From the NCBI GenBank assembly GCA_030054135.1, contig JASGCN010000001.1, forward strand, positions 18,013 to 82,012: 64,000 nt of DNA, given 5' to 3'. The notes below the pieces were generated by a model. That model had not been told where the DNA came from and did no database searches. It worked only from the letters and a program-made list of their open reading frames with translations. A program made the translations under genes and the position numbers. Positions within the stretch are counted from its first letter, which is position 1. Every line of letters starts with the position of its first letter. The stretch is from Alphaproteobacteria bacterium (lineage in GTDB: Bacteria > Patescibacteriota > Minisyncoccia > Phycocordibacterales > JABAAK01). Below, in pieces: positions 13,502 to 32,149 of the stretch.

Positions 13502-13915
13502 TTATTTTGTAGGAATTTTTGATGTCCCCAAACGATATACATACCCCCAATAGGGAATAGCCGCAGTACCTATCGGACACGCAGCTCCAGACGGAATCCA
13601 AACAAATCTTCCAAATGCTGCAAATGAAGGTTCTACAATTGAACCTTTTTCAGCCATTACTGCAAATGGAACAAATATTGGGAATGGACTAAATTTATTT
13701 TGAACAGTAAATACAATTCCCAAATTGCATGGAGTAATACTAAGTATTCTTCCACCAAAACTTCTTAAAAAAACAGACGCCGCGATTGTACCTCCCACAA
13801 ACACGCCTGCAGAGCTATTTGATAATTGTGCAAATGATTTATGTATACCTATGAAAAAAAATAGAGTGGCGACTGTGACCAGTATAATTATTTTTCTAGT
13901 ATTCGTTACTATCAT
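13502..13915 (-). CDS. hypothetical small protein with N-terminal hydrophobic segment (uncertain)
   Basis: 137-aa ORF. It overlaps the 5' end of the downstream plus-strand gene by ~65 nt, so one of the two starts may be wrong. Confidence 0.25.
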   Translation of the reverse strand: MIVTNTRKIIILVTVATLFFFIGIHKSFAQLSNSSAGVFVGGTIAASVFLRSFGGRILSITPCNLGIVFTVQNKFSPFPIFVPFAVMAEKGSIVEPSFAAFGRFVWIPSGAACPIGTAAIPYWGYVYRLGTSKIPTK

Positions 13916-14804
13916 ACCAATAGTATACTCGTGTTACACTTTATATATGGCAGAACCGTATCCAAAAGAATACACCACGCGATTCACTGGATCTTATTAT
14001 AAAATATATATTGTATGCATATTAATACTAGGCAGTATTGTTGGTTTTTTGTATATAACAAAAAAAAATAATCCTCTACTCACTGTATCTTTGAGTAGCA
14101 ACACTACGTACGCAGAGACAGACTCAGATCAAGATTCTTATCCGGATTGGCTCGAACATGTTTCAGGATCAAATCCATATCAAAGTAATTCTGTCCCTGA
14201 AGGAAACATTCTTGATGAAGTATCAACATACATTCCTCCTGCCCGTAGACCTATTCCAAATGATTTATTAAAACTGACTGTTTCTCTTGCAAATGGGACT
14301 CTTACTGAATCTGAACAAAAACTTATTCAACAAAAAAGTATAGCGTATCTTACTGATACTCAATTAAATACATCTATCCCACCATTTGTGTATTCAATTA
14401 ATAATACTGTAAACCCAGCGTTAGTTGCTGAAACAATTTCTTTTGGATTACAAATTATGACCGTACCCGTTCCTATTGAAAAAGTTATTGCTGAATATTT
14501 AGCCGATCCAATCGCCAATGAAGCAAAAATTAAAAATGTCTCTATTCGTTGTGCACGAGCACTTAAAATATTTCCACGTGCAATTCCATCCGCTATAGAA
14601 ATTGAATACAAAAAGATTGTTTTTCGTATTGCGAGACTTTGCGAAGCAACCAACATTGCTTCAACCGGAACCACTTTTGATGAATTTGTTTACATGGCTT
14701 ATTTACTTGTTACCACAGAGTTTACTGCAAATAATTTTAGAAATGATTACATAACAACTATCACCAAACTTGGTGATACACTTGACGTACTAATTAAAAA
14801 ATAA
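13851..14804 (+). CDS. membrane-anchored hypothetical protein; first gene of the T4SS-like operon
   Basis: Start chosen at MKKNRVATV followed by a TM helix (IIIFLVFVTIIPIVY). No catalytic motif. Confidence 0.45.
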   Translation: MKKNRVATVTSIIIFLVFVTIIPIVYSCYTLYMAEPYPKEYTTRFTGSYYKIYIVCILILGSIVGFLYITKKNNPLLTVSLSSNTTYAETDSDQDSYPDWLEHVSGSNPYQSNSVPEGNILDEVSTYIPPARRPIPNDLLKLTVSLANGTLTESEQKLIQQKSIAYLTDTQLNTSIPPFVYSINNTVNPALVAETISFGLQIMTVPVPIEKVIAEYLADPIANEAKIKNVSIRCARALKIFPRAIPSAIEIEYKKIVFRIARLCEATNIASTGTTFDEFVYMAYLLVTTEFTANNFRNDYITTITKLGDTLDVLIKK

Positions 14805-14832
14805 ACACATTTATACGATATACTACGCGTAT

Positions 14833-17295: not shown

Positions 17296-17323
17296 AAGAT
17301 ATTAATCTTGTATACTGTGTATA

Positions 17324-19138
17324 ATGAGTATTGCATTACGATATATTTTTATTGTTATTTTATTTTTTGTACTGTGTGCATATACTGCGTATGCACAAAT
17401 TGCAACGACAGGAATCACTGACAATTTCACCGGAAATAGCACTGAGGTTGAATCTATTTTTTCTAATAATGTTTACACTGATTTGAGCACTGCTGATGGA
17501 TATCAAAAAGCAACTACCAAAAGTTTTCATGCACGTGTACGCCAATACCTGTATCTTTTATCTGATGCAAAAAATATTCTTCTTACATTTCCTCATCGTG
17601 GGGGTCTGCGTGTAAAATTAAAAAAATCAAGTGAACCCGATGATGGATTTCCAGGCATTGTAGATACATCTCTTAATGTATTTCCAGTTACAGAAACACA
17701 ACGTGACACTATTCTTTCTATTATCGCCATTAAAGATGACAGTTCAATTAAAAATATAGGCGAAATAAATAATTTTAAAACAGCTTTTAATGATACCTAT
17801 GGAAGAATAAAAAATATGGCTACATGTGACATTGCTCCTGTGTATGTTGAAGCTACCATTAGTGCAGAACATAAAATAAAAAGTGTGCCCTATGAATTAA
17901 TAGGAGGAGCCACTATACATGTGTGTGCTACTCACAAGTATACTCTTTCAACATATAATTTTAAAGATAATGTATCTTTAATACAAAATGATATAAATGA
18001 AATTGAAAAAAATATATCGTTGTTAAAAAAATATGAACAAGTGTATGGAGATACTCGAGAATATCTTGATGCCTACATTATTGCGTTAAACTCAAAAGAA
18101 GATAAAGGACGAAGTGAAGAAAATGAAGTGCTTATTGCAGAAGCGCAGCGAGATAAAGAATGTTTGTTTGGTATACAAATTGCAGGAAATAGTCCAAAAA
18201 TAGAATCTTACCAAACCTGTCAATTTGCACCCACAGAAAATAATATTATTGATGGGGTATCTGGAAGTACACAAAACTACAATATAGAAACCGGCTTATA
18301 CGATAAGGGACAAAAAAATATTATTCCTACATATAAAGGAGAATTTGTTCCTCTATATGTAAATCCGCGATTGCCAGAATTAATTGCAACAACAAAAACT
18401 GTAGCATCGTTACAAAAAGAAACACTCATATCAGGTATTTCTCCATCAAGTACTTCTAAAAAAACTGTAGTGAATGTTGATGAAGTAAAAGAATTTCTTA
18501 CAAAAAAACCAGCTCTCTACTATGGTGGTGTGCTCCCTGCAAAATGTTTTACCAACATATCTGCTACTACACAAGTAACTGGGTATATCCGACTTAACTG
18601 TTCACTAGCTGATATTAATATTTCTTTCGCAAAACGGATTAAAAAAATTCCCAATGAGACTTCTGTTCGTCAATTGCTTGCCATTATGCGTGAACTTTCA
18701 GATACAAAAGAATTCACTGGTGTTACAGTTAAAAAAACAGATGTTGCAAAAGAAGAATCTCCAAAATGTATAAATAACGACCTCGCAAAAATTATTACCG
18801 GCGTGCTTAAAGTTGTGAGTATTGTACCTGGATTGGGAGGAGATGGTGTAGATGATAGTTGTAAAAGTTACCCAAGGGGAGAAAGCGCTGATGGATCTTT
18901 TACTGTTTGGACAACAGAACTTGTTAAAAGACAAGCACCGCTTGTTTCTTTATTTTCTATAGCTGATATTTACAAATATGCTCCTCCTACACCAACAACT
19001 GAAGAAGCATCAGATCTTAAAACAAAAAATTTAAAGCCCCTTCTTGGCACTATTCCAGTAAGTGAATTGGTTAAATTATATCGAAATGGGCTTCGTGAAC
19101 GCTGGGTGCAAAAACAAATTGAAAACCTGGTAAAATAG
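17324..19138 (+). CDS. secreted protein (604 aa) with signal peptide
   Basis: N-terminal signal sequence ending ...AYTAYAQ. Several Cys residues. No homology recognised. Confidence 0.5.
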   Translation: MSIALRYIFIVILFFVLCAYTAYAQIATTGITDNFTGNSTEVESIFSNNVYTDLSTADGYQKATTKSFHARVRQYLYLLSDAKNILLTFPHRGGLRVKLKKSSEPDDGFPGIVDTSLNVFPVTETQRDTILSIIAIKDDSSIKNIGEINNFKTAFNDTYGRIKNMATCDIAPVYVEATISAEHKIKSVPYELIGGATIHVCATHKYTLSTYNFKDNVSLIQNDINEIEKNISLLKKYEQVYGDTREYLDAYIIALNSKEDKGRSEENEVLIAEAQRDKECLFGIQIAGNSPKIESYQTCQFAPTENNIIDGVSGSTQNYNIETGLYDKGQKNIIPTYKGEFVPLYVNPRLPELIATTKTVASLQKETLISGISPSSTSKKTVVNVDEVKEFLTKKPALYYGGVLPAKCFTNISATTQVTGYIRLNCSLADINISFAKRIKKIPNETSVRQLLAIMRELSDTKEFTGVTVKKTDVAKEESPKCINNDLAKIITGVLKVVSIVPGLGGDGVDDSCKSYPRGESADGSFTVWTTELVKRQAPLVSLFSIADIYKYAPPTPTTEEASDLKTKNLKPLLGTIPVSELVKLYRNGLRERWVQKQIENLVK

Positions 19139-19148
19139 AGACAGCTAT

Positions 19149-21230
19149 ATGTTTTTTATCACCACAACACGAATACGGGCATGCGTTCTTGTAATAATAA
19201 TTGCGAGTATATTTTTACTGCTATACTCATCTCATGGATATGCCATTAGCGTAGCAGGTGCAGTGGAAGATGCTCTTTCAACAATTCTTAAAGGATTGAT
19301 TTTATTAATTGCATCTATGTTGAACATCATACTTTCTATTGTTCTGACATTTGCAGAATTTACACTACGATTAGTAAGTTTGGTAATTAATCTTAATTTA
19401 AGCATTGTTGGATTTTTTATTAATTTTGGAATTTTTGGAATAGTGGCAAACATCTTAAAAGATATTATTAACCTATTTATTATCGGAGCATTGATATGGT
19501 TGGCAATAAAAAATCTTTTCACTGAAGAAGCAGAGGCTTCAATTGGGAAAAAAATGCTTATTATTTTTGCAACAATTATTGTAGTAAACTTTAGTGGGTA
19601 TATTATATTATTTCTTGTTGACGCGTCAACATATATATTACAGTTTTCTTCTTATTATTATATTGATTCTAGTCCAAGAGAAGGTTTTGATCCAAATCTA
19701 GTCAATTTTGTACAACACAATCTAAATATTGTAAGATCACTTAATACTGAAACAATAAACGTTGATAACGCATTGGGGATTATGTTCCCATTTCTAGGAC
19801 TTACAGCGGTGTTTTTTTTAATGTTTATATTTTTTAGAGTATGTATGCTTTTAATCATACGATTTATATACACACTTCTTATTATTATGTGCGCACCGTT
19901 GCTAGGAATACAATTTATTAATTCTGCTGCAAGTGGGAATGCTGGCATAGACTATCCTTTTAAAACACAAATAAAAGCAATAGTTGATGAATGGTGGAAT
20001 CAGTTGATAAAAGTATTTCTTTTTATCCCTATATTTTTGCTCGGTATTGGAATTCTTGGAGAAATAATTTCAGATCTCATTGTTCAGAGTGGGTCAAGTT
20101 TTTCAACTAAGCTCGATGTGAAAGGTGTGGCACTTGCACGTAATCAAACACAACTTGCATTTATTCTTCTCATGGTTATTGGATATGGCATTGTATTAAA
20201 AAAAGCTGTTGATTTTGTTGATAGTAAAATTGAAAAAACTATAACAAAAAAAACATGGGACTGGGCATATAGAAAATTTGTTGTTAGCCCTGCAGGACGT
20301 TTCGCAGGAAAAGCAGTTCAAATTGCAGAAAAATATAAACCTACACGCGCTATTTTAAATGGAATAAAATCAGCAGACGAATGGAGAAAAAATACAGACA
20401 ACAGATCTAATAAAGAAATATTTGCAAGTGCATATACTGCTGCAAAAAATAAATTTGAACCTACTGTAGAGCTTAAAAATAATGAATACATAAGAAAACC
20501 AAGCTCTACACTTAATAGGCTGCAAACACAATTAATTGATTTAGAAACAAGAAAAAATGTGGCCGCCAGTAAAAACCAATCAACTGAATCTTTCGATACT
20601 GAAATAAAAAAAATAGGGAAAGAAATAGGGCGTTTAAAAATTACCGAAGATGCAGAAGTAAAACAATATGCTACAAAACTTGCAGTTGATAGTGCTACAC
20701 CCAATTCAACACAAAAAGATGAAGACCAACTTATTAAAGCGGCAGAGAAAATACACAAAACCGCTATCACGCATACAGAAAAAATAGCTTCCATAAAAAA
20801 AAGAGATGACATTACTGATAAAGAAAAACAAATGGAAATTGGTAAAGTAGATACGATAGCAGGAGAAAATTTTTCTGCCGCCATGAATAGTATAACTAAT
20901 AGATCGAATCAAAAAAGTTATGAACAAAATATTCTAAACCCCAAGAGTAGATTTTTAGAAACTATGTATGGCGACGATTTTGCAAGAGTTGCGCGTGGAC
21001 AATCATCCCAAACTCCGCCATCTACATCAACTCCGCCGCCTGCATCAACTCCGCCATCTGCACCACTAGAATTGATGCCCCAAGAAGCACCACTAGAATT
21101 GATGCCCCAAGAAGCACCACTAGAATTGATGCCCCAAGAAGCACCACTAGAATTGATGCCCGAAGAAGGAACACAAGAAGAAGTAAATGCTACTTTGAGA
21201 GAATTGAAAAAAATAGTAGAAAATAAATGA
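19149..21230 (+). CDS. polytopic membrane protein, VirB6/TrbL-like candidate, with C-terminal Pro-rich tandem repeats
   Basis: At least 6-8 hydrophobic helices in the N-terminal 350 aa. Long hydrophilic C-terminal domain ending in PPSTSTPPPASTPPS and 4x APLELMPQE. Positioned just upstream of the VirB3/VirB4-like genes. Confidence 0.55.
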   Translation: MFFITTTRIRACVLVIIIASIFLLLYSSHGYAISVAGAVEDALSTILKGLILLIASMLNIILSIVLTFAEFTLRLVSLVINLNLSIVGFFINFGIFGIVANILKDIINLFIIGALIWLAIKNLFTEEAEASIGKKMLIIFATIIVVNFSGYIILFLVDASTYILQFSSYYYIDSSPREGFDPNLVNFVQHNLNIVRSLNTETINVDNALGIMFPFLGLTAVFFLMFIFFRVCMLLIIRFIYTLLIIMCAPLLGIQFINSAASGNAGIDYPFKTQIKAIVDEWWNQLIKVFLFIPIFLLGIGILGEIISDLIVQSGSSFSTKLDVKGVALARNQTQLAFILLMVIGYGIVLKKAVDFVDSKIEKTITKKTWDWAYRKFVVSPAGRFAGKAVQIAEKYKPTRAILNGIKSADEWRKNTDNRSNKEIFASAYTAAKNKFEPTVELKNNEYIRKPSSTLNRLQTQLIDLETRKNVAASKNQSTESFDTEIKKIGKEIGRLKITEDAEVKQYATKLAVDSATPNSTQKDEDQLIKAAEKIHKTAITHTEKIASIKKRDDITDKEKQMEIGKVDTIAGENFSAAMNSITNRSNQKSYEQNILNPKSRFLETMYGDDFARVARGQSSQTPPSTSTPPPASTPPSAPLELMPQEAPLELMPQEAPLELMPQEAPLELMPEEGTQEEVNATLRELKKIVENK
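21058..21165 (+). repeat. 27-bp tandem repeat x4 (caccactagaattgatgccccaagaag) inside the 3' end of the VirB6-like gene
   Basis: Three identical copies plus one variant. In frame; encodes APLELMPQE repeats. Confidence 0.85.
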
Positions 21231-21388
21231 CATTTTTAAAATTCACAATGTATTAATAAAATCATTTCACCAAAACTACACGTATACTTTAGAAAAAATA
21301 ATGCCCTAATTGATCCAACATAATGGCAATAATCACAGACACATGTATCTCTAGGAGATATTACAACAAACGGTGTATATCAAAATAA

Positions 21389-21404
21389 TAATCACATGTG
21401 ATTA
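21389..21404. promoter_or_regulatory. perfect 16-bp palindrome taatcacatgtgatta, ~35 nt upstream of the VirB3-like start; candidate operator
   Basis: Exact reverse-complement symmetry in the only sizeable (207-bp) intergenic gap inside the cluster. Confidence 0.4.
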
Positions 21405-21437
21405 CCAATACAATTCAAAATGCTATGATACATATAT

Positions 21438-21836
21438 ATGCAATATAAAGTGCCACAAAATCTTGATATTAAAGATACTGTCATTTTTGGCTTATCTTTT
21501 ATGCAAATGATATATCTTGGAGGAGCTATTGGCTTATTTATTCTTCTTGTTCTTTTTTTAGGATTTTTACCTGGGATTATTTTTAGTACACCTATAGCAA
21601 TACTTGCAGTTTTGTTTTCTTTTTATCAAATTAACAATCAAACATTTGTTACGATATTTCAAGCGATGCTTTTGTACGCATTTCGATCACGTCTATACAC
21701 ATGGCAAAGAAACAAAATTGACAACATTGAACCAAAAATATTTTTAGCGAAAAATGATTACGCCCCCGATGCTAAATATAAAACAAGTGTTCGTGTAGAA
21801 GATTTAAAAACATCTCTCGATTTTAATCCAGAATAA
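21438..21836 (+). CDS. small 2-TM membrane protein, VirB3/PrgI-like candidate
   Basis: 132 aa with two adjacent hydrophobic helices. Immediately precedes the VirB4 N-domain gene, as VirB3-like proteins do in monoderm T4SS loci. Confidence 0.45.
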   Translation: MQYKVPQNLDIKDTVIFGLSFMQMIYLGGAIGLFILLVLFLGFLPGIIFSTPIAILAVLFSFYQINNQTFVTIFQAMLLYAFRSRLYTWQRNKIDNIEPKIFLAKNDYAPDAKYKTSVRVEDLKTSLDFNPE

Positions 21837-21839
21837 TCT

Positions 21840-22472
21840 ATGCCGCAGTCCACACAATCGTTTATTCCAATTAAAGAAATTCGTGACGGTATCATAGTGC
21901 ATGATGATGGAAGTCTTTCTGCTATTGTTCTTGTCTCTGCTATGAACTTTGATTTAAAATCTGCAGATGAACAACAAGCGACCTTATATCAATTTCAATC
22001 TCTCATTAATTCACTTGAATCTTCTACTCAAATTATTGTGCAGTCTCGCAGAGTAGACCTGAAAGAGTACCTTACATACTTACAAGAATTGTATGAGAAA
22101 CAAACAAATGATTTACTTCGTCTGCAAACAAAAGAATATATTGTATTTATAAAAAAATTTTTAGAGACGCATGATATTATGTCTAAACGATTTTTTGTTG
22201 TATTGCAATACGTTCCTCTATCAATAAAACAGGGGTTTACATCTCTATTTACATCTACACCATCAAAAAATAATGATGCAAATGCAATAGAAAAATCTTT
22301 TGAAGAAGCAAAAACTCAACTGGTACAAAGAATATCATTCGTGCAAAGTAATGTTCGATCATTAGGGTTGCGCGCAGTAATGCTCGATACTGAAGAAGCA
22401 ATTGAAACTTTTTATCAAACTTTTAATCCGGGAGACACTCAATCGCCTAAACAAAAAATTTCTGCAGAATAG
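21840..22472 (+). CDS. virB4: VirB4/TraC/CagE-family protein, N-terminal domain (separate ORF)
   Basis: The ...IPIKEIRDGIIVHDDGSLSAIVLVSAMNFDLKSADEQQATLYQFQSLINSL pattern matches the N-terminal CagE/TrbE/VirB region of VirB4-like ATPases. It terminates at TAG 17 nt before the next ORF, which is in a different frame. Confidence 0.6.
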   Translation: MPQSTQSFIPIKEIRDGIIVHDDGSLSAIVLVSAMNFDLKSADEQQATLYQFQSLINSLESSTQIIVQSRRVDLKEYLTYLQELYEKQTNDLLRLQTKEYIVFIKKFLETHDIMSKRFFVVLQYVPLSIKQGFTSLFTSTPSKNNDANAIEKSFEEAKTQLVQRISFVQSNVRSLGLRAVMLDTEEAIETFYQTFNPGDTQSPKQKISAE

Positions 22473-22489
22473 CTCTATACTATAGATAT

Positions 22490-24244
22490 ATGCCAACATC
22501 TGCGTCGGACTACCAAACATTTTCAAGTGGAGGGAACATATCCATTAGAGATATTCTTGCCCCAATGTCTATTAAAATAAACACGAAACACATTGAGCTT
22601 GGGGATAAAGTTGCTCGTACACTTTCTATTGTGTCATACCCTCGTTTTCTTAATAATGGCTGGCTTTCGCCAATTATTAATCTAAGTAGAGAATTTGATT
22701 TATGTATTTTTATACACCCGATTGATTCGAGAGATATCTTACGCCAATTTAGAAAAAAAGTTGCTCAAGTAGAAAGTCAAATTATTGATAGAGAGCGTCA
22801 TGGGCTTGTACGAGATCCACAACTTGATGTTGCTTTTAAAGATATTGAAGAACTTCGTAATAGCATACAACAAGCAACTGAAAAAATATTTAATGTTGGT
22901 GTATACATCACCATATATGCAGATACCGTTGAAAATTTAAATAGAACAGAGCAGGATATCCGAGCAGTACTTGAAGGAAGACTTATTTTTGTAAAGCCAA
23001 CTCTCTTTCAACAAGAAAAAGGATTTCAATCAACTACACCGCTTGGAGTAGATTCTCTTGAGATACATACAAAATTAAACACTGAACCCCTATCTAGTTT
23101 TTTTCCTTTTATTTCTTTTGATCTTTCTTCAGATAAGGGGATCCTTTACGGCATTAACCGTCACAATGCTTCTCTAATTCTTTTTGATCGTTTTTCTTTG
23201 CCAAACTATAACTCTGTTACTTTTGCAACTTCTGGAGCAGGAAAATCATACGCTATGAAACTTGAAATTATTCGTTCTCTTATGTTTGGAACTGATGTTA
23301 TTGTAATAGATCCAGAAAATGAATTTCGAAAACTTGCCATTGCTACAGGGGGGAAAACTTTTGATGTTTCTCTTAGTTCTGAAAGTCATATTAATCCTTT
23401 TGATCTCCCTACGCTTACCGAAGATGAATCTCTTTCTGATGCATTAAGAAACAATGTTATAAATCTTGTAGGACTATTTCGAGTTCTTCTTGGTGGACTC
23501 ACAGCTGAAGAAGAGTCTATTATTGATAGAGCAATAAATGAAACCTATGCTCTTAAAGATGTCACACCAGATATTGAAACTTTTGAAGGCCTAGAACCAC
23601 CACTTCTTTCTGATTTTGCAGTAGTACTTGCAGGTATTGAAGGAGGGAAAAATATAACATCTCGATTAAGTCGATATGTTACTGGTTCATGGTCTGGTTT
23701 TATGAATCAGCCAACAAATATAGACATCAATAAACAATTTATTGTATTTTCAATTCGTGATATGGAAGCAGATTTAAAACCTGCGGGTATGTATATTATT
23801 ACTCGCTATATTTGGAATCATGTACGAAAAACACTAAAAAAGAGGCTTCTCGTCGTGGATGAAGCGTGGGTTATGATGCAATCTGAAGACACGGCCCAAT
23901 TTTTATATGGGCTTGTTAAACGAGGAAGAAAATACTATCTCGGTGTTGGAACCATTACACAAGATGTGGGAGATTTTCTTAAAAGTCAATATGGAAAAGC
24001 AATACTTACGAACTCATCTCTTGTGTTGCTTCTAAGACAGTCCCCCACCACCATTGATCTTGTAAAAGAAACATTCAATCTCACAGAAAATGAAAAATAT
24101 CTTTTACTTGAATCTGATGTGGGAGAAGGACTTTTTATTGCGGGGCTTAAACGGGTTGCAATAAAAATTATTAGTTCATACACAGAAAATCAAATTATCA
24201 CCACAGATCCAAGTCAACTTGTACAAAAAATAAATAATGCCTAA
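22490..24244 (+). CDS. virB4: VirB4/TraC/CagE-family conjugation/T4SS ATPase, central and C-terminal ATPase part
   Basis: Middle-domain pattern (LGDKVARTLSIVSYPRFLNNGWL), Walker A ATSGAGKS, Walker B LLVVDEAW. Together with the preceding ORF the length is ~795 aa, typical of VirB4. Confidence 0.8.
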   Translation: MPTSASDYQTFSSGGNISIRDILAPMSIKINTKHIELGDKVARTLSIVSYPRFLNNGWLSPIINLSREFDLCIFIHPIDSRDILRQFRKKVAQVESQIIDRERHGLVRDPQLDVAFKDIEELRNSIQQATEKIFNVGVYITIYADTVENLNRTEQDIRAVLEGRLIFVKPTLFQQEKGFQSTTPLGVDSLEIHTKLNTEPLSSFFPFISFDLSSDKGILYGINRHNASLILFDRFSLPNYNSVTFATSGAGKSYAMKLEIIRSLMFGTDVIVIDPENEFRKLAIATGGKTFDVSLSSESHINPFDLPTLTEDESLSDALRNNVINLVGLFRVLLGGLTAEEESIIDRAINETYALKDVTPDIETFEGLEPPLLSDFAVVLAGIEGGKNITSRLSRYVTGSWSGFMNQPTNIDINKQFIVFSIRDMEADLKPAGMYIITRYIWNHVRKTLKKRLLVVDEAWVMMQSEDTAQFLYGLVKRGRKYYLGVGTITQDVGDFLKSQYGKAILTNSSLVLLLRQSPTTIDLVKETFNLTENEKYLLLESDVGEGLFIAGLKRVAIKIISSYTENQIITTDPSQLVQKINNA

Positions 24245-24626
24245 GCCAGCCCAAAAAAAAGAAAGCGACGGTGGTTCTTTACTTGGAAAATATTTTGTTG
24301 GGTGTTTTTACATAGTGCATACTATTATTGGATCAATGATATCTTCCTTGCTCATGGCAGGAGGTGTAGCATTAATCACTGGTATATTGACTTTATTCAT
24401 TGGTATTCCAGTATTTATGCTAGGATATATTTTGCGGATTACCATGGCAGTAATTACTTTTTTTATATTTTTTACAATAATGATTGCAGACAATAGACTG
24501 AGTTTTAATTTGGTTATACGACTTATACTTGGATTTGTTATTGAGTTAGCGCCTACACCAATATTTCTGTCGTCATATACACATTTTTTTATTTCCTACG
24601 TATTTCTATCCAAAACAAAAAAATAA
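24237..24626 (+). CDS. small polytopic membrane protein (3-4 TM)
   Basis: 129 aa, almost entirely hydrophobic helices. Overlaps the virB4 stop by 8 nt, which suggests translational coupling. Confidence 0.45.
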   Translation: MPKPAQKKESDGGSLLGKYFVGCFYIVHTIIGSMISSLLMAGGVALITGILTLFIGIPVFMLGYILRITMAVITFFIFFTIMIADNRLSFNLVIRLILGFVIELAPTPIFLSSYTHFFISYVFLSKTKK

Positions 24627-24653
24627 TTCCTGCACGATGGCTATACTAGAGAT

Positions 24654-25814
24654 ATGCATATGTTTCTAAAAAATAGCCTGGGTGTACTTTTTATAATTTG
24701 CATATGTATATGGAGCGCGTATCATGTGCATGCACAAGTTCCTTCTGCATTTGCTGATGATCCTACACAAGCAACTGATGATTCGAATCGTCTTGATGAA
24801 TTAAAAAATATTGAAAATGGTGAAGGATTAAATGTGCAACAAGATTCAGATTCTTGTAATAGCGCTGACCCCTTATACAATGAATACTGTAGAACATTAA
24901 ACAATTTGGAAGATACTCACCCTGCATACACCTTAGAAACTGATCCTCCATTTCCAGAACCGAACACTTCGGCAAATGTGTCTATTAAAGCAGGGGCTAT
25001 GAGTGTTGATAATATTCAATCAGTTGAGTGGACAGTTCGTGGAAAAACATTTACCTCCCGTAGTACAAATACTGTTGTTTCTATAAATGATCTTGATGAT
25101 CAAACAACAGTCAAAGCACGGGTGTTCCATTATACTGATGCAGGATTAGTTGAATATAAAAAAATACTTACACTCACACTTACTCCCATGATATTTGATT
25201 TACATTGGGAAGGAAAAACTGTAGTGCCACCACTATATGAAGGAGTTAAATATATGGGGCCAAATACTGATGTTCAAGTACAGGCATACATTCGATTACT
25301 TCAAAATAATATTCTTTACACAGAAAAAGATTTTAATTTTCGATGGGAAAGAGAATCACTTCCTCATATTTCAAAAGGAGCAACTGCCATAGTCTCTGGA
25401 ACTGATTATACTTCATCTCCATTGCGCGTCGCCTGTTTTATAAAATTTAAATATGGAGACCTTTCTTTTGATAAGAGCATTCAAATACCGATTGTAAACC
25501 CATATTCAGTGATATATCAACAAGACAATCTTAATGGGAAAAACCACCTCACGCTACAAAAAAATTCAACTATTGCTAACAGATTCACTTTATTATCTTT
25601 TTATCCACTCTACACCAATGTGGATTCTTTTGTTCAAGGACTCAATACATACGAATGGGATATTGCTGGGAATAAAAAAAATCAAAAAAGAACTGTACGT
25701 ATAGAGAGTAGTGGCGAAGGAACTGTTGGGATAGGTATTTTTATGACACCCGGAAAAGAAAGTGATTTTCTTCAAAGTGTAGACCAGTCACTTTCATTAA
25801 ACTTTGTTCAATAA
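24654..25814 (+). CDS. secreted protein (386 aa) with signal peptide
   Basis: Signal peptide MHMFLKNSLGVLFIICICIWSAYHVHAQ. No recognisable motif. Confidence 0.5.
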   Translation: MHMFLKNSLGVLFIICICIWSAYHVHAQVPSAFADDPTQATDDSNRLDELKNIENGEGLNVQQDSDSCNSADPLYNEYCRTLNNLEDTHPAYTLETDPPFPEPNTSANVSIKAGAMSVDNIQSVEWTVRGKTFTSRSTNTVVSINDLDDQTTVKARVFHYTDAGLVEYKKILTLTLTPMIFDLHWEGKTVVPPLYEGVKYMGPNTDVQVQAYIRLLQNNILYTEKDFNFRWERESLPHISKGATAIVSGTDYTSSPLRVACFIKFKYGDLSFDKSIQIPIVNPYSVIYQQDNLNGKNHLTLQKNSTIANRFTLLSFYPLYTNVDSFVQGLNTYEWDIAGNKKNQKRTVRIESSGEGTVGIGIFMTPGKESDFLQSVDQSLSLNFVQ

Positions 25815-25846
25815 ATTCAATGTAGTCGTGTTACACTATCATTAAC

Positions 25847-28800
25847 ATGCCATTACAACAAATACTTCGAAGCGTATTAGTGTGCATATATTTATGTGTT
25901 TTTGTCATATTCATTTTTATTAATTATACTCATGCAGAAATTTCAACAACTGATCAATCAGGCTCCGAAAAAGATTTAATTTCAATAGGAGATGTTCCAG
26001 AAGAAAGATATTTCACAGAAATATTTAAAAATAAATTTAATCTAGATTTGCAAAAAGAAGGTTCTGATGAAATGAAAAAAAAAGACCAGTTTACTAAATT
26101 TAAAGATTTATTAGTTACATTTTTAAAAATAATTCTTGCCATATCTGCAGCCATAGTAACAATAAGAATAATGATTACTGGCATTAAAACGCTTAGTGCA
26201 GGGTACTCAGGAAATGTTGGGAATCTTGTTAACGCACTTTCTGAATTTAAAAAATCTATTTTTGCAGTATTTGTTCTTGCGATTTCTATTCCAGCAGTTG
26301 AATACATCCACGGAAAACTTGTTCCTCGAGATCTTTATTCTGGACAAATCGCCACCACAACCACCACCACGAGCGCTAAAAAGGCCTCGCCATCAACAGG
26401 AACACCAAATGGAAATTCTCAACCTACCTCTACAACTCCATTATCTAACAATAATGATTCTTCAAGCGCACCAACCTCTCCTCCTTCTGAAAAATCTCTT
26501 TCTATCCGTGCTCAATGGATGATTGAAGAAACTTCTGGTAAAAATGAGGAAGAGAAGGAAGCTATAAGAAAAGATTTTGTAGACGCAGTATCCAAGGCAA
26601 TAGAAAATTGCAAAACACTAAGTACAAATAATAATTGTACAATACTTACAAAGTATGCCGACGGCGATGCAAAAATTCCGATAGAAGAACAGAAACAATA
26701 CAAAGACGTTTTAACTAATGCTTATAACATATACATATTTAATAAAAGTCAAAATATAAAACCTAATGAAACTATTACAACGACTACATCTACCCGTGGT
26801 AGTCCTAAAGTACCAAATGTACAAACCAAAAGCATTACAAATCCAGCAGCAACAGAATTACAAAATATTGCCCTTAGTGATATTTCACTCAATCCTAGTA
26901 ATTCTCTTTCTGGGAAAACGGCTGGTTCCATTATTAACAATGCTTTAATTTCTGGAGTCGAACGATCAGAAATACAAAGATTAGAAGATTTATATAACAC
27001 GGCAGTTAAAGAATTAAACAGCGGAAAAGTTGAAACGATTGCACAAGAAAGGCGCGCTCTTTTTGAGAAAATTGCAAATATGAAGCCAACATATGAACAA
27101 CCGAAAACTGCTACGTCTGTAGATATACCAGGTATCCCATCCATTCTTCTTCAAAAAAATAATCCTCTACCACTCAAAATACCAGGTAGTATACAGATAC
27201 CCGACAGATTAGGTGCTGTACAAGATACTGCACGATCCTCTCAGTCCTCTAGTGTTTTTACTCAAGAAAAGGCTCCAACAATTAATGGCCAGACAAGTAT
27301 AAATATAGATAAAAAAGTTAACATCATAATGCCTTTGAATAATAACCCTAGTTCATTACCAATTCTTTCTACTCTTTCTACAAAAAATATATCCTCAAGT
27401 ACTCCTGAAACAATCAATGGGGAAAATACTTTAATTAGTCAAGTGGATATAAATAAATGGCAGACAGAACAAATAGCGACTGCAAGAGCAGAAATCGAAC
27501 AAGATAAAATAGTTGAAAAACAGAAAGTTCAAACTGCTGTTGCAAGAGCAGAAATAGCACTCGAAAAAGCAAATGAAGAGTACAAAAAAAATTCAACAAA
27601 TGAAAATAAAGCATTGGTACAAAACGCAAAAGAAGCTCTTGCTGAGGCTCGTGTACAAGCACAAGAATTTGGTATCCTTGAAGCAATTGATAGAAAAAAC
27701 GAGGGGTTTGGTTCTATTATTGAAATTCCCGATTACGGAGATTATTTCCCCAATGACAAAACAGTCAGAGATGCTTTTTTTGAAAAAGAAAGAGCACAAA
27801 TGAAAGCATTTGAAGAAGCATCAAATGCTCTAGAGGAAAAAAGAAAAATTGCAATTAAAAATGGGAATACAAAAATGGCGAATGATATTGTAAAAGAACA
27901 AAGAAAATTATTTAACGATTACAACACAAAATTAGAAACAATTGTGAATGACGCAAAAAATAAAGATGACATAATCGCTTTTTCATTAGCAAGAGAGGAA
28001 AAAGAAAAAAAAGAAACTCTTCAAACAAATTCAAATACATGGTTTGATTCAATAAAAGGTTTTTTTTCTCCAAAAAAAGATGAGCCTGCTCCATCTGCTC
28101 CAATTGTCCTTACAAAACAGAATATAACAAATACTCCCACCTCACAAGAATATGCGAATAATAAATCTGTAGCCACAACAAATGTATCAGCCGGGGTTAT
28201 TAAAAGAGAAACACCTAACAGCGCAACTCCTATAAATATAAATAGAGAAAATCTTTCAAATATTCAATCACTTCCACAAGTTAATTCACTCGCTTTGCCA
28301 ACACCAAAAGATATACCTAATTTAAAAGTGCATTCTGCGCCACCAGAGAAAAGATCTACACCACAAAACAATGAGAAAAAAGTACTCACACAAAATAACC
28401 CACAGGACTTTTCGCAATCAATACTATCACCACCTAACTCATTTTTTGGAAACATTGTCAATGTAACACAGAATTTAGGATGTAGTACAGGTATACAAAT
28501 ACTTTGTACTACAAATAATATAAACACTAAAACGGCCCCCACAACACAAAAAACACAAACGGAACCTATATCTATTACAGAAACAGATTTGAAAAATATA
28601 ACAACCCCCAACAATCAAAAGATATCTTTTACACAGCAAAATGTGAACTATGAGAAACAATATACACCTACACGAGCATTCGACACTATAAAAAACATAG
28701 GAAAAGAAATAGACAAAAAAAATATCACCAAAGAAGATAGAGCATACGTATTGGATATTTTAAAAAAAACGAAAGATCTTGACACAATACAAGCAAAAGA

Positions 28801-29908
28801 ATTTCCTAAAGAAGTTGGTATATTGCTTGGTAATATTCTAGATACAAACATACCAGTAGAATTACTCTCTAACAATTTTTTAACGGCCGTTGCTGACAGA
28901 GCACGCGAGTATTATAACCCTAAGGGCGTTCCCTCAGTAGGAGCTATGGTAGAGGATTTACTGCCGAGACTGTCTTTTAAACAAATTTATGATTTAGAGC
29001 AAAAAAGAATTTCAAATCCCAATTGGGTAAAAAATTCAGAAGCGTTAGCATACAGTGTTGGTGAGACTTACCGTAAAGCCAAAAAAGATGTTTTAGACGA
29101 AAATATTACCAGTGATGCTACTTTTTGGCCCGGGCAGAATGAAAGACTATCATTAAATTCAGACGATGAGAAAACATATCTAACCTTATATGCCAATGGT
29201 CAAAAAGATAAAGCATACGAATATAGAGATAATATTTTTAAAGAATTAAATTCATACATACTTGAAAATGGAGGTACTGATACATTAACAAAAGAACAAA
29301 AACAAATATTTAGCGCATATATACGCGAAGGTATTTCAGCTGCGGCACAAGAGACAAACAGCATAAAACAAGCCAAAGAAAACACAAAACAAGTCAATGA
29401 AAACAATACACGAGCAGTCAAAGACTTTTATCTAGAAAAAGCAAATGGGGAACGAATTTATTTTGATGGAAATGGAAAATATAATAATCGTTTAAATTAT
29501 TTTTCACAACAAATAGAATTTAAAAAAAATGAGAAAACTGGAAAAATAATATCAAATATTACCATAGATAACTTAACTCCTAAAGACAGAGAACAATATA
29601 CAGATGACATTGATTCTATAAAGAGAAACCGCAACAACTATGATCAAGTAGTAAATGTGCAATTGCGAACAGTGGAGTATAGATTAAAACCTGAATACCG
29701 TAAATATGAGAACATATCGACAGAGACTATTCAAGCAGAAAATAACATACGAGCTCAAGAATCAATTAAAAAATTAAATACTATTCTTTTGAAACATATT
29801 GAGAATGGAGTACTCAATAAAAATGGTGAAAAACTATATTCACTATACAAAAATGGCGAAGCTTCAATTGATGATCTAAATGAATATTCAGACGCTATTA
29901 AAAAATAA
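25847..29908 (+). CDS. giant (1353 aa) membrane-anchored surface protein with Ser/Thr/Pro-rich linker and coiled-coil-like Lys/Glu-rich regions
   Basis: N-terminal signal-like segment plus two further hydrophobic helices (LVTFLKIILAISAAIVTIRIMITGI; IFAVFVLAISIPAVEYI) in the first ~150 aa, which is pilin/VirB2-like topology. Then TTTTTTSAKKASPSTGTP low-complexity region and internal ARAEIEQ/ARAEIALE repeats. Confidence 0.55.
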   Translation: MPLQQILRSVLVCIYLCVFVIFIFINYTHAEISTTDQSGSEKDLISIGDVPEERYFTEIFKNKFNLDLQKEGSDEMKKKDQFTKFKDLLVTFLKIILAISAAIVTIRIMITGIKTLSAGYSGNVGNLVNALSEFKKSIFAVFVLAISIPAVEYIHGKLVPRDLYSGQIATTTTTTSAKKASPSTGTPNGNSQPTSTTPLSNNNDSSSAPTSPPSEKSLSIRAQWMIEETSGKNEEEKEAIRKDFVDAVSKAIENCKTLSTNNNCTILTKYADGDAKIPIEEQKQYKDVLTNAYNIYIFNKSQNIKPNETITTTTSTRGSPKVPNVQTKSITNPAATELQNIALSDISLNPSNSLSGKTAGSIINNALISGVERSEIQRLEDLYNTAVKELNSGKVETIAQERRALFEKIANMKPTYEQPKTATSVDIPGIPSILLQKNNPLPLKIPGSIQIPDRLGAVQDTARSSQSSSVFTQEKAPTINGQTSINIDKKVNIIMPLNNNPSSLPILSTLSTKNISSSTPETINGENTLISQVDINKWQTEQIATARAEIEQDKIVEKQKVQTAVARAEIALEKANEEYKKNSTNENKALVQNAKEALAEARVQAQEFGILEAIDRKNEGFGSIIEIPDYGDYFPNDKTVRDAFFEKERAQMKAFEEASNALEEKRKIAIKNGNTKMANDIVKEQRKLFNDYNTKLETIVNDAKNKDDIIAFSLAREEKEKKETLQTNSNTWFDSIKGFFSPKKDEPAPSAPIVLTKQNITNTPTSQEYANNKSVATTNVSAGVIKRETPNSATPININRENLSNIQSLPQVNSLALPTPKDIPNLKVHSAPPEKRSTPQNNEKKVLTQNNPQDFSQSILSPPNSFFGNIVNVTQNLGCSTGIQILCTTNNINTKTAPTTQKTQTEPISITETDLKNITTPNNQKISFTQQNVNYEKQYTPTRAFDTIKNIGKEIDKKNITKEDRAYVLDILKKTKDLDTIQAKEFPKEVGILLGNILDTNIPVELLSNNFLTAVADRAREYYNPKGVPSVGAMVEDLLPRLSFKQIYDLEQKRISNPNWVKNSEALAYSVGETYRKAKKDVLDENITSDATFWPGQNERLSLNSDDEKTYLTLYANGQKDKAYEYRDNIFKELNSYILENGGTDTLTKEQKQIFSAYIREGISAAAQETNSIKQAKENTKQVNENNTRAVKDFYLEKANGERIYFDGNGKYNNRLNYFSQQIEFKKNEKTGKIISNITIDNLTPKDREQYTDDIDSIKRNRNNYDQVVNVQLRTVEYRLKPEYRKYENISTETIQAENNIRAQESIKKLNTILLKHIENGVLNKNGEKLYSLYKNGEASIDDLNEYSDAIKK

Positions 29909-29917
29909 ATTAAAACA

Positions 29918-30769
29918 TCATCTATTCAAATTATTTCTTTCGTCCCATTGATTTTTCCCGTCTTTCAGTAATTGAATAACCTTTTCCCAGTATGTAGAAT
30001 AAAAAGTTGATAAGTATGTATAAGAAGAAGAGATAAGAAGAGATTGTTCTATTTTGAACTGAAACTGAAGAGGATCATGTAAAGAATTAGAGATATCTAT
30101 ATTGTACTCTTCTTTAATTTTTTTAGTAACGATATGTGTAATAAATATAGAAAATAATTTGAATTGTTCTTTAGAAAAATCGTTTGGAGATATCAGTGCA
30201 GGCATTGTTTGTACCAGATGTTGTTCTTCTGTAGATAGCGCAGTTTCACCTATTGCTTTTTTTGCAATTGCTACAAAATCTTCAATAGAATAACTTTTCT
30301 CTCCATTGGTATACATAGTAATTCCTTTTAACACATACGCACGATGCCAATAAAGAAAATTTAATTCTAATTCTTTTTCATATTTTTTTATACATTCTTT
30401 CGCTTCTTTGTGATATTGAAAATTATTTTTTTCATTACTAATATAAGACAAAACATATTCTATTCCAATAGAAAATATTAATTGTATATTTTTATTGTAT
30501 GTTTCGTTATTTTCCAAATGAAACATTTTTTGTAAAGCATTTAATTCTTCTAGATTTTGTTGCATAAGATATTTTTCTTTATACAAAAAATCATGTATTT
30601 CTTTGTATGTAGGAGGGATATACTCATTATCAATATCATTGTTTTTATTTGCTTGTGCATGTACTGCCATTCCTAACAATATTGGAAGTATAAATGTATT
30701 AATAAAAGCTGAAGAGGGACTTTTTTTTTCTTTATTCTTAGGATATTTCATATATGTACATAATAACAC
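29918..30769 (-). CDS. secreted hypothetical protein (283 aa)
   Basis: Signal peptide (ILPILLGMAVHAQA). Helical, repeat-like composition. Convergent with the giant gene. Confidence 0.45.
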   Translation of the reverse strand: MLLCTYMKYPKNKEKKSPSSAFINTFILPILLGMAVHAQANKNNDIDNEYIPPTYKEIHDFLYKEKYLMQQNLEELNALQKMFHLENNETYNKNIQLIFSIGIEYVLSYISNEKNNFQYHKEAKECIKKYEKELELNFLYWHRAYVLKGITMYTNGEKSYSIEDFVAIAKKAIGETALSTEEQHLVQTMPALISPNDFSKEQFKLFSIFITHIVTKKIKEEYNIDISNSLHDPLQFQFKIEQSLLISSSYTYLSTFYSTYWEKVIQLLKDGKNQWDERNNLNR

Positions 30770-30778
30770 GGTATACTA

Positions 30779-32149
30779 ATGTTATATCTTTATTTTTATA
30801 TGTTAAATGACCCTCTTTCGCAAACACCCGTACCACAAAATACAAATGATGAAAAAAAAGAAAAGCGTGTTACCATTGCGTCTGTTATTGCATTGTTGAT
30901 ATTGCTAGGATTAATAGCAATATTTTTTTTCTTTTTTTACAATAAAGATAAAACCAGCCAGCAAATAAATGAAAAAAAAACCGCAGGAACTCTCACCAGT
31001 GGCGAAGTTGTCCCCCAACTTAATCTTGATGATTTGTATAAAAAAACTCCTGACTATATACCTGATGAAGATATAGTATCAACTGCTCCGGATAGATCCC
31101 AAACATCTGCCAAGCCCCCCATCACACTTCCAATACCGCTTGTATTTAAAATATTCGATGGTCCTACCGCAGGATATAAAATACGAGAAGATACGGCTGG
31201 TATTACTCGAATAGACATAGTTGAAGGAGGCAGTGGTACACGATATTCAACACCACTTTTCCCCCCTGCGATATCTCGCGTTGGGGGAGGAGAGGTTACT
31301 CGTGTAAAAAAGGCACATATTTTTGATGCAAACAAAGTTCTTCTTATTTACGAAAATCAAAGTGATGAATTGCAAACAAATTCTGCATTTGTTCCTTTTA
31401 ATACGCTACAATCACAGGGCATAGAATTATTCTTAAAAAATATAAAAGCAACCACTAACAATGCAAATAAACTATTCTATTTACAAAAAACCCCTGACGG
31501 TTCTATTGGTGGTGTCATTGACGCTACTGATGCAAAATCGAAAACAATTATTTGGAAAAATGCAATTACACAATGGAATATACAGTGGGGGAATAATGAT
31601 CTCATTACTATAAAAACCCCACTCAGTGAAACACTAAGTAGTTTTGTATACCGTGCAGATCCAAATGGTATTAAACCGACAAAACGTACCCACGGAAGAG
31701 TATTGGGCACTTCAATTCTTTATCACGACGAACAAAACACTTCTGTGCAAAATTATATTTTAAATAAAAAATTTGTAACTGAAATAAAAACTCCTGAACA
31801 AAGTACTTGGGCGATTGAAACTACATTGCCAGAAAAATGTGCCGGTTACAAAGCTGTTTTTATTTGTGGATTACCCATTTATCTTCCTCAAATAACAAGA
31901 TCTGGGAATCCATTTGTATTCCCAGATTCATGGTATTTAGGAGATGCGACATTTGATGATATTATTATTCTTTTTGATAGTACCACAAAACAAAGATACG
32001 AATTGGTGAACCCAGATTCTACTACAGTTCAAAATCTTACCGATTCTGCACGATTTGATATTGTCGATCCGTACATTTCAAAAAAACTTACATTTTTCTT
32101 TTTCATTAACAATGTGGATCTCTCTTTATGGGCGGTTCGTTTGCAGTAA
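30779..32149 (+). CDS. membrane-anchored extracytoplasmic hypothetical protein (456 aa)
   Basis: N-terminal TM (VTIASVIALLILLGLIAIFFFFF) followed by a large hydrophilic domain. Confidence 0.45.
   Translation: MLYLYFYMLNDPLSQTPVPQNTNDEKKEKRVTIASVIALLILLGLIAIFFFFFYNKDKTSQQINEKKTAGTLTSGEVVPQLNLDDLYKKTPDYIPDEDIVSTAPDRSQTSAKPPITLPIPLVFKIFDGPTAGYKIREDTAGITRIDIVEGGSGTRYSTPLFPPAISRVGGGEVTRVKKAHIFDANKVLLIYENQSDELQTNSAFVPFNTLQSQGIELFLKNIKATTNNANKLFYLQKTPDGSIGGVIDATDAKSKTIIWKNAITQWNIQWGNNDLITIKTPLSETLSSFVYRADPNGIKPTKRTHGRVLGTSILYHDEQNTSVQNYILNKKFVTEIKTPEQSTWAIETTLPEKCAGYKAVFICGLPIYLPQITRSGNPFVFPDSWYLGDATFDDIIILFDSTTKQRYELVNPDSTTVQNLTDSARFDIVDPYISKKLTFFFFINNVDLSLWAVRLQ

Follow-up and report, generated by a model that had tools for sequence, protein, structure and literature searches.

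A 1353-residue protein with a probable VirB2-like hairpin in a type IV secretion cluster of Patescibacteria: a candidate host-contact protein

Introduction

VirB2 pilins are regarded as small, self-contained subunits, and we know of no classical VirB2/TrbC/TraA member that carries a large C-terminal module. These classical pilins (PF04956), which belong to the type IV secretion systems (T4SSs) of diderm bacteria, combine a leader peptide with two hydrophobic helices and a cytoplasmic loop, and in their mature form comprise about 70–120 residues that polymerise into a tube. Both VirB4 and VirB6 are needed for their extraction and assembly (PMC12857230, PMC12624023). T4SSs are also widespread in Patescibacteria, where they lie beside the replication origin and are set apart from other monoderm T4SSs by their VirB2-like pilins. 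The layout reported for them is monoderm (MPF-FATA)-like, with the relaxase absent and with VirB2-like pilins typically encoded near virB4 and close to dnaA, dnaN, rnpA and ksgA; TrsD is the commonest T4SS protein reported for these bacteria, and most clusters with VirB2 are reported without a separate VirB1 (PMC12102498). In the one system tested, that of Ca. Southlakia epibionticum with its pilin array, they are essential and the T4SS is required for epibiotic growth (PMC10633639); what this T4SS does in Patescibacteria is unknown (PMC11665869, PMC12857230). Here we describe QM526_00235, a giant protein encoded at the position of such a small pilin gene in a 64,000-nucleotide stretch of contig JASGCN010000001.1 (positions 18,013 to 82,012; hereafter the window), in which a probable VirB2-like hairpin at the N-terminus is followed by a very long tail predicted to lie outside the cell.

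The closest known things are the small VirB2-like T4SS_pilin proteins of Patescibacteria (PF18895; PMC10633639, PMC12102498). As in their clusters, PrgI/VirB3, TrsD, VirB4 and a polytopic protein are encoded in the window beside ksgA, rnpA, yidC, dnaA and dnaN, and the slot downstream of virB4 holds a signal peptide and a two-helix hairpin, then a Pro/Ser/Thr-rich stretch, with a weak, probably specific profile similarity to the family. Unlike these proteins, which are typically 95–166 residues long, QM526_00235 is about ten times longer, scores below the family threshold, is without the G...(T)INP motif and carries a 1180-residue tail that has no relatives. With the classical pilins it shares the leader peptide and the two hydrophobic helices with a cytoplasmic loop. 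The concept of a pilin module joined to a C-terminal functional module is familiar from the modular type IV pilins (PilB and PilC of Streptococcus sanguinis, CofB of enterotoxigenic Escherichia coli), in which an adhesive module is grafted C-terminally onto the pilin and displayed on the filament or at its tip, although these build an unrelated filament, with a class III signal peptide, the peptidase PilD and far smaller grafts. A further parallel is offered by the extended VirB6 proteins (F-plasmid TraG, Rickettsiales VirB6 paralogues), core T4SS membrane subunits whose hydrophilic extension is very large and has an unknown or contact-related function; there, however, the module is a polytopic VirB6 rather than a two-helix pilin hairpin, and no sequence relationship to QM526_00235 exists. 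The role of the extended VirB6 domains is not yet known (PMC12857230).

Results

Position in the pilin slot

For comparison, we took the best 80 relatives of the VirB4 encoded in the window together with their surrounding DNA (labelled L001 and onwards). The gene order in 38 of these 80 loci is virB4, a small multi-transmembrane gene, a secreted protein of ~230–390 residues, a protein with a signal peptide and two transmembrane helices, an N-terminally anchored protein of ~375–530 residues, dnaA and dnaN. The window follows this conserved virB4-to-dnaA order, and QM526_00235 stands in the slot of the protein with the signal peptide and two helices. The 38 slot proteins collected span 133–851 residues and have their signal peptide at the same place as QM526_00235; 24 of them match PF18895 T4SS_pilin (best E 4e-10) and two match TrbC/VirB2. 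In L001, the closest genome, the slot holds a 168-residue hairpin protein that ends in a short Pro-rich tail directly after the hairpin. Since the genes flanking that slot are clear orthologues of the genes on both flanks of QM526_00235 (Table 1), the latter is, by gene order, the positional orthologue of a small VirB2-like T4SS_pilin gene.

Gene integrity and predicted topology

An earlier note on this DNA, made from the letters alone, had described a 1353-residue open reading frame (ORF) in a T4SS context, with a signal-like segment and two hydrophobic helices at the N-terminus and a Thr/Ser/Pro linker after them; all of these points were borne out. A single ORF of 1353 residues was found again at exactly the same coordinates, running on the + strand from the ATG at 25847 to the stop codon at 29906–29908, and its length is far beyond chance: the two alternative frames of 25847–29908 contain 86 and 136 stop codons per 1353 codons, and the chance probability of an open frame with 1353 codons here is about e^-89. 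Its codons are native in frame, as synonymous usage correlates with that of the housekeeping genes of the window in all four quarters of the gene (r 0.64–0.82, as against at most 0.45 out of frame), and the identical 1353-residue protein is present on two more independent assemblies (Logan SRR23378604 and SRR23378605). Directly upstream, genes for a polytopic membrane protein, a PrgI/VirB3-like protein and a split VirB4 supply the T4SS context. A Kyte-Doolittle scan reveals three hydrophobic segments, all within the first 155 residues, with peaks at residues ~9–27, 89–112 and 137–154, and the Thr/Ser/Pro linker follows at residues ~165–215. With a predicted signal peptide ahead of two membrane helices (three hydrophobic segments in all, the first entering N-in), both the N-terminal segment and the tail should be located outside, and the loop between the helices inside. 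Charges are distributed accordingly, the loop having a net charge of +2 and the N-terminal segment of −4. An external tail is further suggested by the slot orthologues, which carry peptidoglycan hydrolases, enzymes acting outside the membrane, at the same C-terminal position, and by the four cysteines of the tail, which fall in two close pairs (255/264 and 879/887). Display at the surface, which the note had in mind when it suggested a fibre or adhesin subunit or a surface-displayed effector, fits both the predicted topology and the C-terminal hydrolases of the orthologues.

Similarity of the hairpin to VirB2-like pilins

Searched against Pfam, residues 1–169 give PF18895 as the top match (E 0.011, 16.2 bits), with residues 88–145 aligned to profile positions 8–62 of 71. 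This family shares a clan with TrbC/VirB2 PF04956, to which QM526_00235 gave no direct Pfam match. Of the 179 ORFs in the window, the protein scores best with a profile of 36 slot hairpins (E 0.0011; hhalign probability 30%), a score that 2 of 2000 segment-preserving shuffles reach. With a larger profile of 140 hairpin sequences, residues 60–175 score 18.5 bits, again the best of the window ORFs (E 2.3e-4), and this value is reached by none of 2000 full shuffles and by none of 2000 shuffles in which each hydrophobic segment keeps its position. In hhalign, the 140-sequence profile aligns over 80 columns with residues 81–162, that is, with the whole hairpin, at 62% probability (E 7.7e-5). Other membrane proteins of the window, taken as controls, attain at most 4% in hhalign. 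Taken together, the sequence evidence for homology with pilins is consistent, if weak, and we consider it very probable that the N-terminus is a strongly diverged VirB2-like hairpin, in the structural as well as the evolutionary sense. The only other ORF of the window that matches the hairpin profile, an 86-residue ORF with one hydrophobic helix at 10484–10744 on the − strand, aligns over helix 1 only and drops from 12.2 to 7.8 bits with the larger profile; it was set aside as probably due to chance.

Composition, predicted structure and relatives of the tail

AlphaFold, run without an alignment on residues 154–1353 and on residues 935–1353, predicts helical modules separated by stretches without secondary structure (Table 1), and the secondary-structure picture agrees between both runs. 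The mean predicted local distance difference test (pLDDT) values are 40 and 48, respectively (56–76 for the first 150 residues of the shorter model), which is too low for a fold assignment. The earlier note had further called the tail Lys/Glu-rich and partly internally repetitive, with coiled-coil stalk segments. The first description holds in part: Lys (9.7%) and Glu are mildly enriched, as are Thr and Ser, and the charged residues are concentrated in residues ~535–740, but the tail is mainly Asn-rich, its chief enrichment being that of Asn (10.6%, compared with 4.7% for housekeeping proteins); His, Met, Cys and Gly are under-represented. Internal repetition was not recovered, as self-BLASTP at E ≤ 10 returns the self-match alone, tandem repeats in the DNA (TRF) are trivial, with at most 2–3 copies of 9–21 bp, and the ARAEI motif occurs just twice. 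The coiled coils fared no better: long helices are predicted at residues 535–618 and 638–704, yet the heptad a/d hydrophobicity of six helical segments does not exceed that of shuffles, a fraction of 0.23–0.95 of which reach the observed value in our own, crude test. We found no LPXTG-like sorting signal, and the C-terminus is hydrophilic (...NEYSDAIKK), unlike that of PrgB-type sortase-anchored adhesins.

An exhaustive HMMER search of residues 176–1353 against 1.84 billion representative proteins returned the tail itself and one marginal match. That match (P0002, E 6.6e-4) was rejected as spurious, being a high-GC tandem-repeat adhesin matched in seven short stretches. The whole protein gave nothing against Pfam, NCBIfam, PHROGs and PDB sequences, and a word-indexed search of 5.8 billion proteins gave QM526_00235 only, among the matches listed. 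No hydrolase domain was detected in the tail with Pfam, NCBIfam or PHROGs, even at E ≤ 0.1–10 on segments, and Foldseek against the PDB retrieved generic helical repeats only (best E 0.29, TM-score 0.1–0.2), which were disregarded. As far as these searches reach, the tail is an orphan, a status that, given how remote the nearest sampled genome is, owes as much to undersampling and rapid divergence as to real uniqueness. The earlier note had proposed that its reading be judged on the presence of the N-terminal membrane hairpin and on any match to a known cytoplasmic family; the predicted hairpin is present, and the searches gave no cytoplasmic-family match.

Hairpin fusions in related loci

An architecture of hairpin plus large C-terminal module is, by these sequence comparisons, recurrent. 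At least 10 of the 38 slot proteins, plus the protein of L010, carry a peptidoglycan hydrolase domain after the hairpin, always C-terminal to it, namely SLT in six, NlpC/P60 in two (one also with Amidase_5), VanY in one and glucosaminidase in one. The L020 protein, for example, has its hairpin at residues 566–635 and VanY at 697–805, and that of L009 has its hairpin at 244–310 and NlpC/P60 at 378–489; the hydrolase tails of the orthologues measure 170–250 residues. Run against the 80 loci, the hairpin profile finds 76 ORFs in 59 loci, of 97–1200 residues (median 295), 14 of them with at least 500 residues and six with at least 800. This length distribution was taken from the loci; a search of the big database with the hairpin alignment returned short pilins alone (95–166 residues). 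We found no account of such hairpin fusions in the literature searched. The hydrolase fusions may explain why many clusters appear to be without a separate VirB1.

The slot of L041 is associated with two long proteins, of 851 and 532 residues. Elsewhere, in L033, L035, L039 and L040, Cys-rich giants of 822–1200 residues with an N-terminal T4SS_pilin hairpin are encoded upstream of virB4, on the strand opposite to it, and another hairpin gene follows; a further one, in L045, is cut at the locus end, with 714 residues recovered. The Cys-rich giants share the motifs FQEIPLGTI, YFYDGDGATFYF and VIPIGEVVD and a C-terminal DNYYCC. Neither they nor the long proteins of L041 have a Pfam domain besides T4SS_pilin. 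QM526_00235 resembles the hairpin-hydrolase proteins (L009, L012, L018, L020, L023, L047) and the Cys-rich giants in having an N-terminal hairpin and a large C-terminal module, predicted to be extracytoplasmic, and in being encoded in or beside a T4SS cluster. It differs from them in that its tail shares no sequence with theirs (phmmer finds it unrelated to the giant proteins of the related loci), is without an enzyme domain and is Cys-poor, and in that it is the longest of all.

Source organism and surrounding cluster

The NCBI label of the assembly, 'Alphaproteobacteria bacterium', was rejected on the evidence of VirB4 relatives, synteny and housekeeping proteins. All 80 of the best VirB4 relatives are from Patescibacteria, mostly of Paceibacterota/Nomurabacteria type (best identity 71%), and counterparts of DnaA, DnaN, KsgA and YidC are likewise found in Patescibacteria loci, with identities of only 32–46% (38.5% for DnaA of the nearest genome). 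The source organism looks like a Patescibacterium, and the label looks wrong. Because the housekeeping proteins reach 32–46% identity as against 71% for VirB4, the lineage is, on these values, deep-branching and poorly sampled, and its VirB4 is conserved to an unusual degree.

With a GC content of about 34%, the window represents a chromosomal region of housekeeping genes, in which a tight gene run on the + strand (13725–29908) ends with QM526_00235, and ksgA lies just upstream of the cluster. The order on the + strand is three membrane or secreted proteins that match no family, a 693-residue polytopic protein, the PrgI/VirB3-like protein, the TrsD-like protein, the VirB4 ATPase, a 129-residue multi-transmembrane protein, a 386-residue secreted protein and QM526_00235; 3′ of the latter follow a 283-residue gene on the opposite strand, a 456-residue N-terminally anchored gene, yidC, rnpA, dnaA and dnaN. 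This layout, including the TrsD-like part, agrees with that described for Patescibacteria (PMC12102498). No coupling protein or relaxase was found in the 64-kb window, and no VirB1-like hydrolase in its T4SS cluster. The gap of 33 bp between QM526_00235 and its upstream neighbour on the same strand suggests co-transcription with the upstream genes; a promoter and terminator scan gave signals at chance level. None of the other ORFs in the window is a paralogue of QM526_00235 by phmmer.

Several neighbouring genes deserve separate mention. The VirB4 of the window is split into a 210-residue N-terminal TrsD-like protein and a 584-residue ATPase, kept in 72 and 80 of the 80 loci, respectively. The 693-residue polytopic protein has no Pfam match and no phmmer match in the 80 loci, and its long hydrophilic C-terminal tail ends in four tandem 9-residue units, APLELMPQE (21060–21185), with a Pro/Ser/Thr-rich stretch before them. 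Two large secreted proteins, of 820 and 604 residues, that head the cluster (14833–19138, + strand) have no family matches; the former has a weak relative in L001 only (E 1e-11, a 1183-residue protein) and the latter none in the 80 loci. From such comparisons, the extracellular components of the cluster are seen to diverge much faster than its cytoplasmic and membrane core. The 283-residue ORF at 29918–30769 (− strand), with a signal-like N-terminus, converges on QM526_00235, the two stop codons being 9 bp apart. It is without a counterpart in the 80 loci, has only faint PHROG matches and breaks the conserved order of slot gene and N-anchored gene, and it looks like a lineage-specific insertion. 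Finally, a 137-residue ORF at 13502–13915 (− strand), which clearly begins like a signal peptide, covers ~190 bases at the beginning of the 359-residue ORF at 13725–14804 (+ strand), the true start of which may lie further downstream, at an internal Met before its transmembrane segment.

Table 1. Coordinates of QM526_00235, its predicted parts, the neighbouring cluster genes and the hairpin fusions of related loci (positions in the window unless a locus label is given).
Feature	Coordinates	Strand	Basis
Whole ORF, giant protein with VirB2-like hairpin (probable)	25847–29908	+	ORF, native codon usage, three assemblies
Predicted Sec-type signal peptide, aa 1–30; n-region MPLQQILR, h-region aa 9–27, T-H-A|E fits the −3/−1 rule	25847–25936	+	Hydropathy peak 2.79
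Acidic mature N-terminal segment, aa 31–88, predicted outside; 10 K/R, 14 D/E	25937–26110	+	Charge count; placement follows from the predicted signal peptide
Hairpin helix 1, aa 89–112	26111–26182	+	Hydropathy 2.54; aligned to T4SS_pilin helix 1 by Pfam, our own hidden Markov model and hhalign
Short loop, aa 113–136, net +2, predicted cytoplasmic	26183–26254	+	Charge count; aligns with the K-rich loop of the family
Weaker helix 2, aa 137–154	26255–26308	+	Hydropathy 1.5–1.8; hhalign alignment
Thr/Ser/Pro/Asn-rich linker, aa 165–215, TTTTTTSAKKASPSTGTPNGNSQPTSTTPLSNNNDSSSAPTSPPS; putative wall-spanning spacer	26339–26491	+	Sequence; AlphaFold without secondary structure, pLDDT <35
Two small predicted helical modules, aa 216–300 (with Cys255/Cys264) and aa 357–409	26492–27073	+	AlphaFold single-sequence, pLDDT 40–52
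Pro/Ser/Thr/Asn-rich predicted unstructured linker, aa 410–534	27074–27448	+	No secondary structure, pLDDT 24–31; composition
Charged Ala/Glu/Lys/Gln-rich long predicted helices, aa 535–704 (47, 23, 34 and 30 residues)	27449–27958	+	Best-predicted part, pLDDT 60–76; holds both ARAEI motifs
Predicted unstructured linker of ~236 residues, aa 705–940, with Cys879/Cys887	27959–28666	+	No secondary structure, pLDDT 25–31
C-terminal, mostly alpha-helical region (predicted), aa 941–1353; first ~150 residues form the most confident bundle	28667–29905	+	AlphaFold of aa 935–1353
693-aa polytopic membrane protein, usual VirB6/PrgH position	19149–21230	+	Assigned by position alone
PrgI/VirB3-like protein	21438–21836	+	PF12666, E 5.4e-9
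Split VirB4: TrsD-like N-terminal part 21840–22472 and ATPase 22490–24244	21840–24244	+	NCBIfam TrsD/VirB4 N-terminal; CD1110 family, E 9e-113; PF19044
386-aa secreted protein, upstream flank of the pilin slot	24654–25814	+	Orthologous to L001 12168–13175, phmmer E 3.9e-31
456-aa N-terminally anchored protein, downstream flank of the slot	30779–32149	+	Orthologous to L001 13677–15017, phmmer E 1.7e-75
Hairpin-hydrolase fusions	L009:12808–14364, L018:12862–14448, L020:12854–15313, L012:12841–13896, L023:4893–6077		
Hairpin-hydrolase fusions	L047:12795–13955, L011:9868–11697, L017:12809–14554, L024:2879–4711, L010:4762–6864(−)		
Cys-rich giant hairpin proteins	L033:615–4217(−), L035:625–4017(−), L039:550–3855(−), L040:903–3371(−), L045:1–2142(−)		

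Discussion

We read QM526_00235 as a modular VirB2-like protein of a Patescibacteria monoderm-type T4SS, for which host-cell contact is the most likely role, and put the probability of this reading at roughly one half. The protein would be inserted by Sec and YidC, with the signal peptide cut after Ala30, such that the hairpin would reside in the cytoplasmic membrane, its short basic loop facing the cytoplasm, and everything past residue ~155 would be exported. By analogy with classical VirB2 pilins, the hairpin may dock to a VirB3/VirB6-type platform or be fed into it by the VirB4 ATPase. The Thr/Ser/Pro linker would then cross the cell wall, and the alternation in the structure models of disordered linkers (about 50, 125 and 236 residues) with helical modules may amount to a long flexible tether, of the order of 100 nm if extended, as estimated from residue counts. 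Such a tether would display the alpha-helical region formed by the C-terminal ~410 residues on the cell surface, or on a short T4SS filament, at its tip or along its side, and may mediate host-cell contact in an episymbiotic lifestyle, either by adhesion or by positioning the secretion apparatus. Host contact appears the most likely role because of the episymbiotic biology of these bacteria, their essential and unexplained T4SS (PMC10633639, PMC11665869) and the rapid divergence of the tail.

A number of observations weigh against this reading. Helix 2 is short and weakly hydrophobic (hydropathy 1.5–1.8), and QM526_00235 lacks both the family-invariant Gly at the beginning of this helix and the (T)INP that directly follows the helix, which are present in 36 of 36 aligned orthologues; at the aligned positions it has A140 and ...EYIHGKLVP... 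instead. The Pfam score of 16.2 bits lies below the PF18895 gathering threshold of 26.6 bits, and the protein is not formally a member of that family; several undoubted slot members also fall below the threshold (17.7–25.9 bits). There is no pairwise similarity to the slot orthologues, as phmmer against all ORFs of the 80 loci on both strands gave 0 matches, and BLASTP against the 168-residue slot protein of L001 was not significant. No further hairpin gene was found in the 64-kb window, which leaves no obvious major pilin to decorate, and a homopolymer in which every subunit bears 130 kDa would, for steric reasons, be difficult to fit into a classical VirB2 pilus. Regarding the tail, confidence in the structure models is low (mean pLDDT 40 and 48), and the tail has no family, PDB or fold match that bears on binding or action.

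Four other explanations, in descending order of the confidence we place in them, have to be weighed. The one that survives best, unlikely as we hold it to be, is a pro-protein, in which the hairpin is a real small pilin and the tail is cleaved off within the Thr/Ser/Pro linker, with release or discarding of a protein of ~125 kDa. C-terminal trimming is established for VirB2-family pilins, as in RP4 TrbC and the cyclised VirB2, and in L001 the orthologue has no more than its short Pro-rich tail beyond the hairpin. The AlphaFold models show the linker as unstructured and exposed, a cleaved small pilin would avoid the steric problem of polymerising a 150-kDa subunit, and the window encodes no second hairpin. 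However, no recognisable processing site or TraF-like peptidase was found in the cluster, and to keep 1180 intact codons for discarding would be costly in a reduced genome; moreover, the orthologues keep their enzymes permanently fused at the same position, which suggests that the fusion is functional as such.

We give somewhat less credence to a non-orthologous replacement, in which a generic signal peptide and anchor unrelated to VirB2 would belong to an ordinary, lineage-specific surface protein independent of the T4SS. The lack of pairwise similarity to the orthologues, the missing family-invariant motif, the sub-threshold Pfam match and a remodelled neighbourhood, with the apparent acquisition of the unrelated gene at 29918–30769 (− strand) beside QM526_00235, all speak in its favour. 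It is hard to square with a score for the larger profile that lies above all 4000 shuffles, including the segment-preserving ones, and above those of all other membrane proteins of the window, with an alignment that stays in register across the whole hairpin, and with a spacing, loop charge and following Pro/Ser/Thr-rich stretch that match the family; the tight 33-bp gap on the same strand also suggests co-transcription with the upstream T4SS genes.

Less probable again is a wall-remodelling anchor, the equivalent of VirB1 in this cluster, with an unrecognised peptidoglycan-modifying or wall-binding domain in the tail. Although SLT, NlpC/P60, VanY or glucosaminidase follows the hairpin in at least 10 of the 38 slot orthologues and the window's T4SS cluster has no VirB1-like hydrolase that we could find, no hydrolase family or motif matches the tail even at permissive thresholds, the hydrolase tails of the orthologues comprise 170–250 residues and not 1180, and the tail, made up for the most part of linkers and helices, has few catalytic residues that look conserved (His 0.2%, Cys 0.3%). 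That the ORF is an artefact or a gene in decay (a mis-assembly, a pilin gene fused by frameshift to the sequence downstream of it, or a non-functional, pseudogene-like read-through) may be dismissed as most improbable, since the single metagenomic lineage, the absence of homologues and the low-complexity, A-rich composition that could suggest it are set against an identical ORF in three assemblies, 1353 stop-free codons where the other frames have 86–136 stops, and native in-frame codon usage throughout.

Within the reading of QM526_00235 as a modular VirB2-like protein, a bolder and in our view improbable extension is that the Patescibacteria VirB2-like hairpin serves as a general 'address tag', and not solely as a component of pili, handing large extracytoplasmic cargo to the VirB4-powered platform. 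The cargo would then comprise wall hydrolases, the modules of the Cys-rich giants and, here, a 130-kDa orphan tether, and QM526_00235 would be drawn out of the membrane and extruded, either alone or within a short filament as a sparse or terminal subunit, as a pilin-fused effector or harpoon. If this were true, the protein would form a physical link between episymbiont and host, or would place its C-terminal domain on or inside the host envelope; no such way of presenting a T4SS substrate has been described so far.

More generally, a slot gene that may carry hydrolases, Cys-rich modules of ~1000 residues or an orphan tail of 1180 residues suggests that the VirB2-like hairpin of Patescibacteria, besides forming small pilins, is also an anchoring or targeting module for surface machinery. 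Hairpin fusions of this kind offer concrete handles on how the T4SS acts at the host interface, and QM526_00235 would be their extreme case, a candidate host-contact protein of an undersampled lineage.

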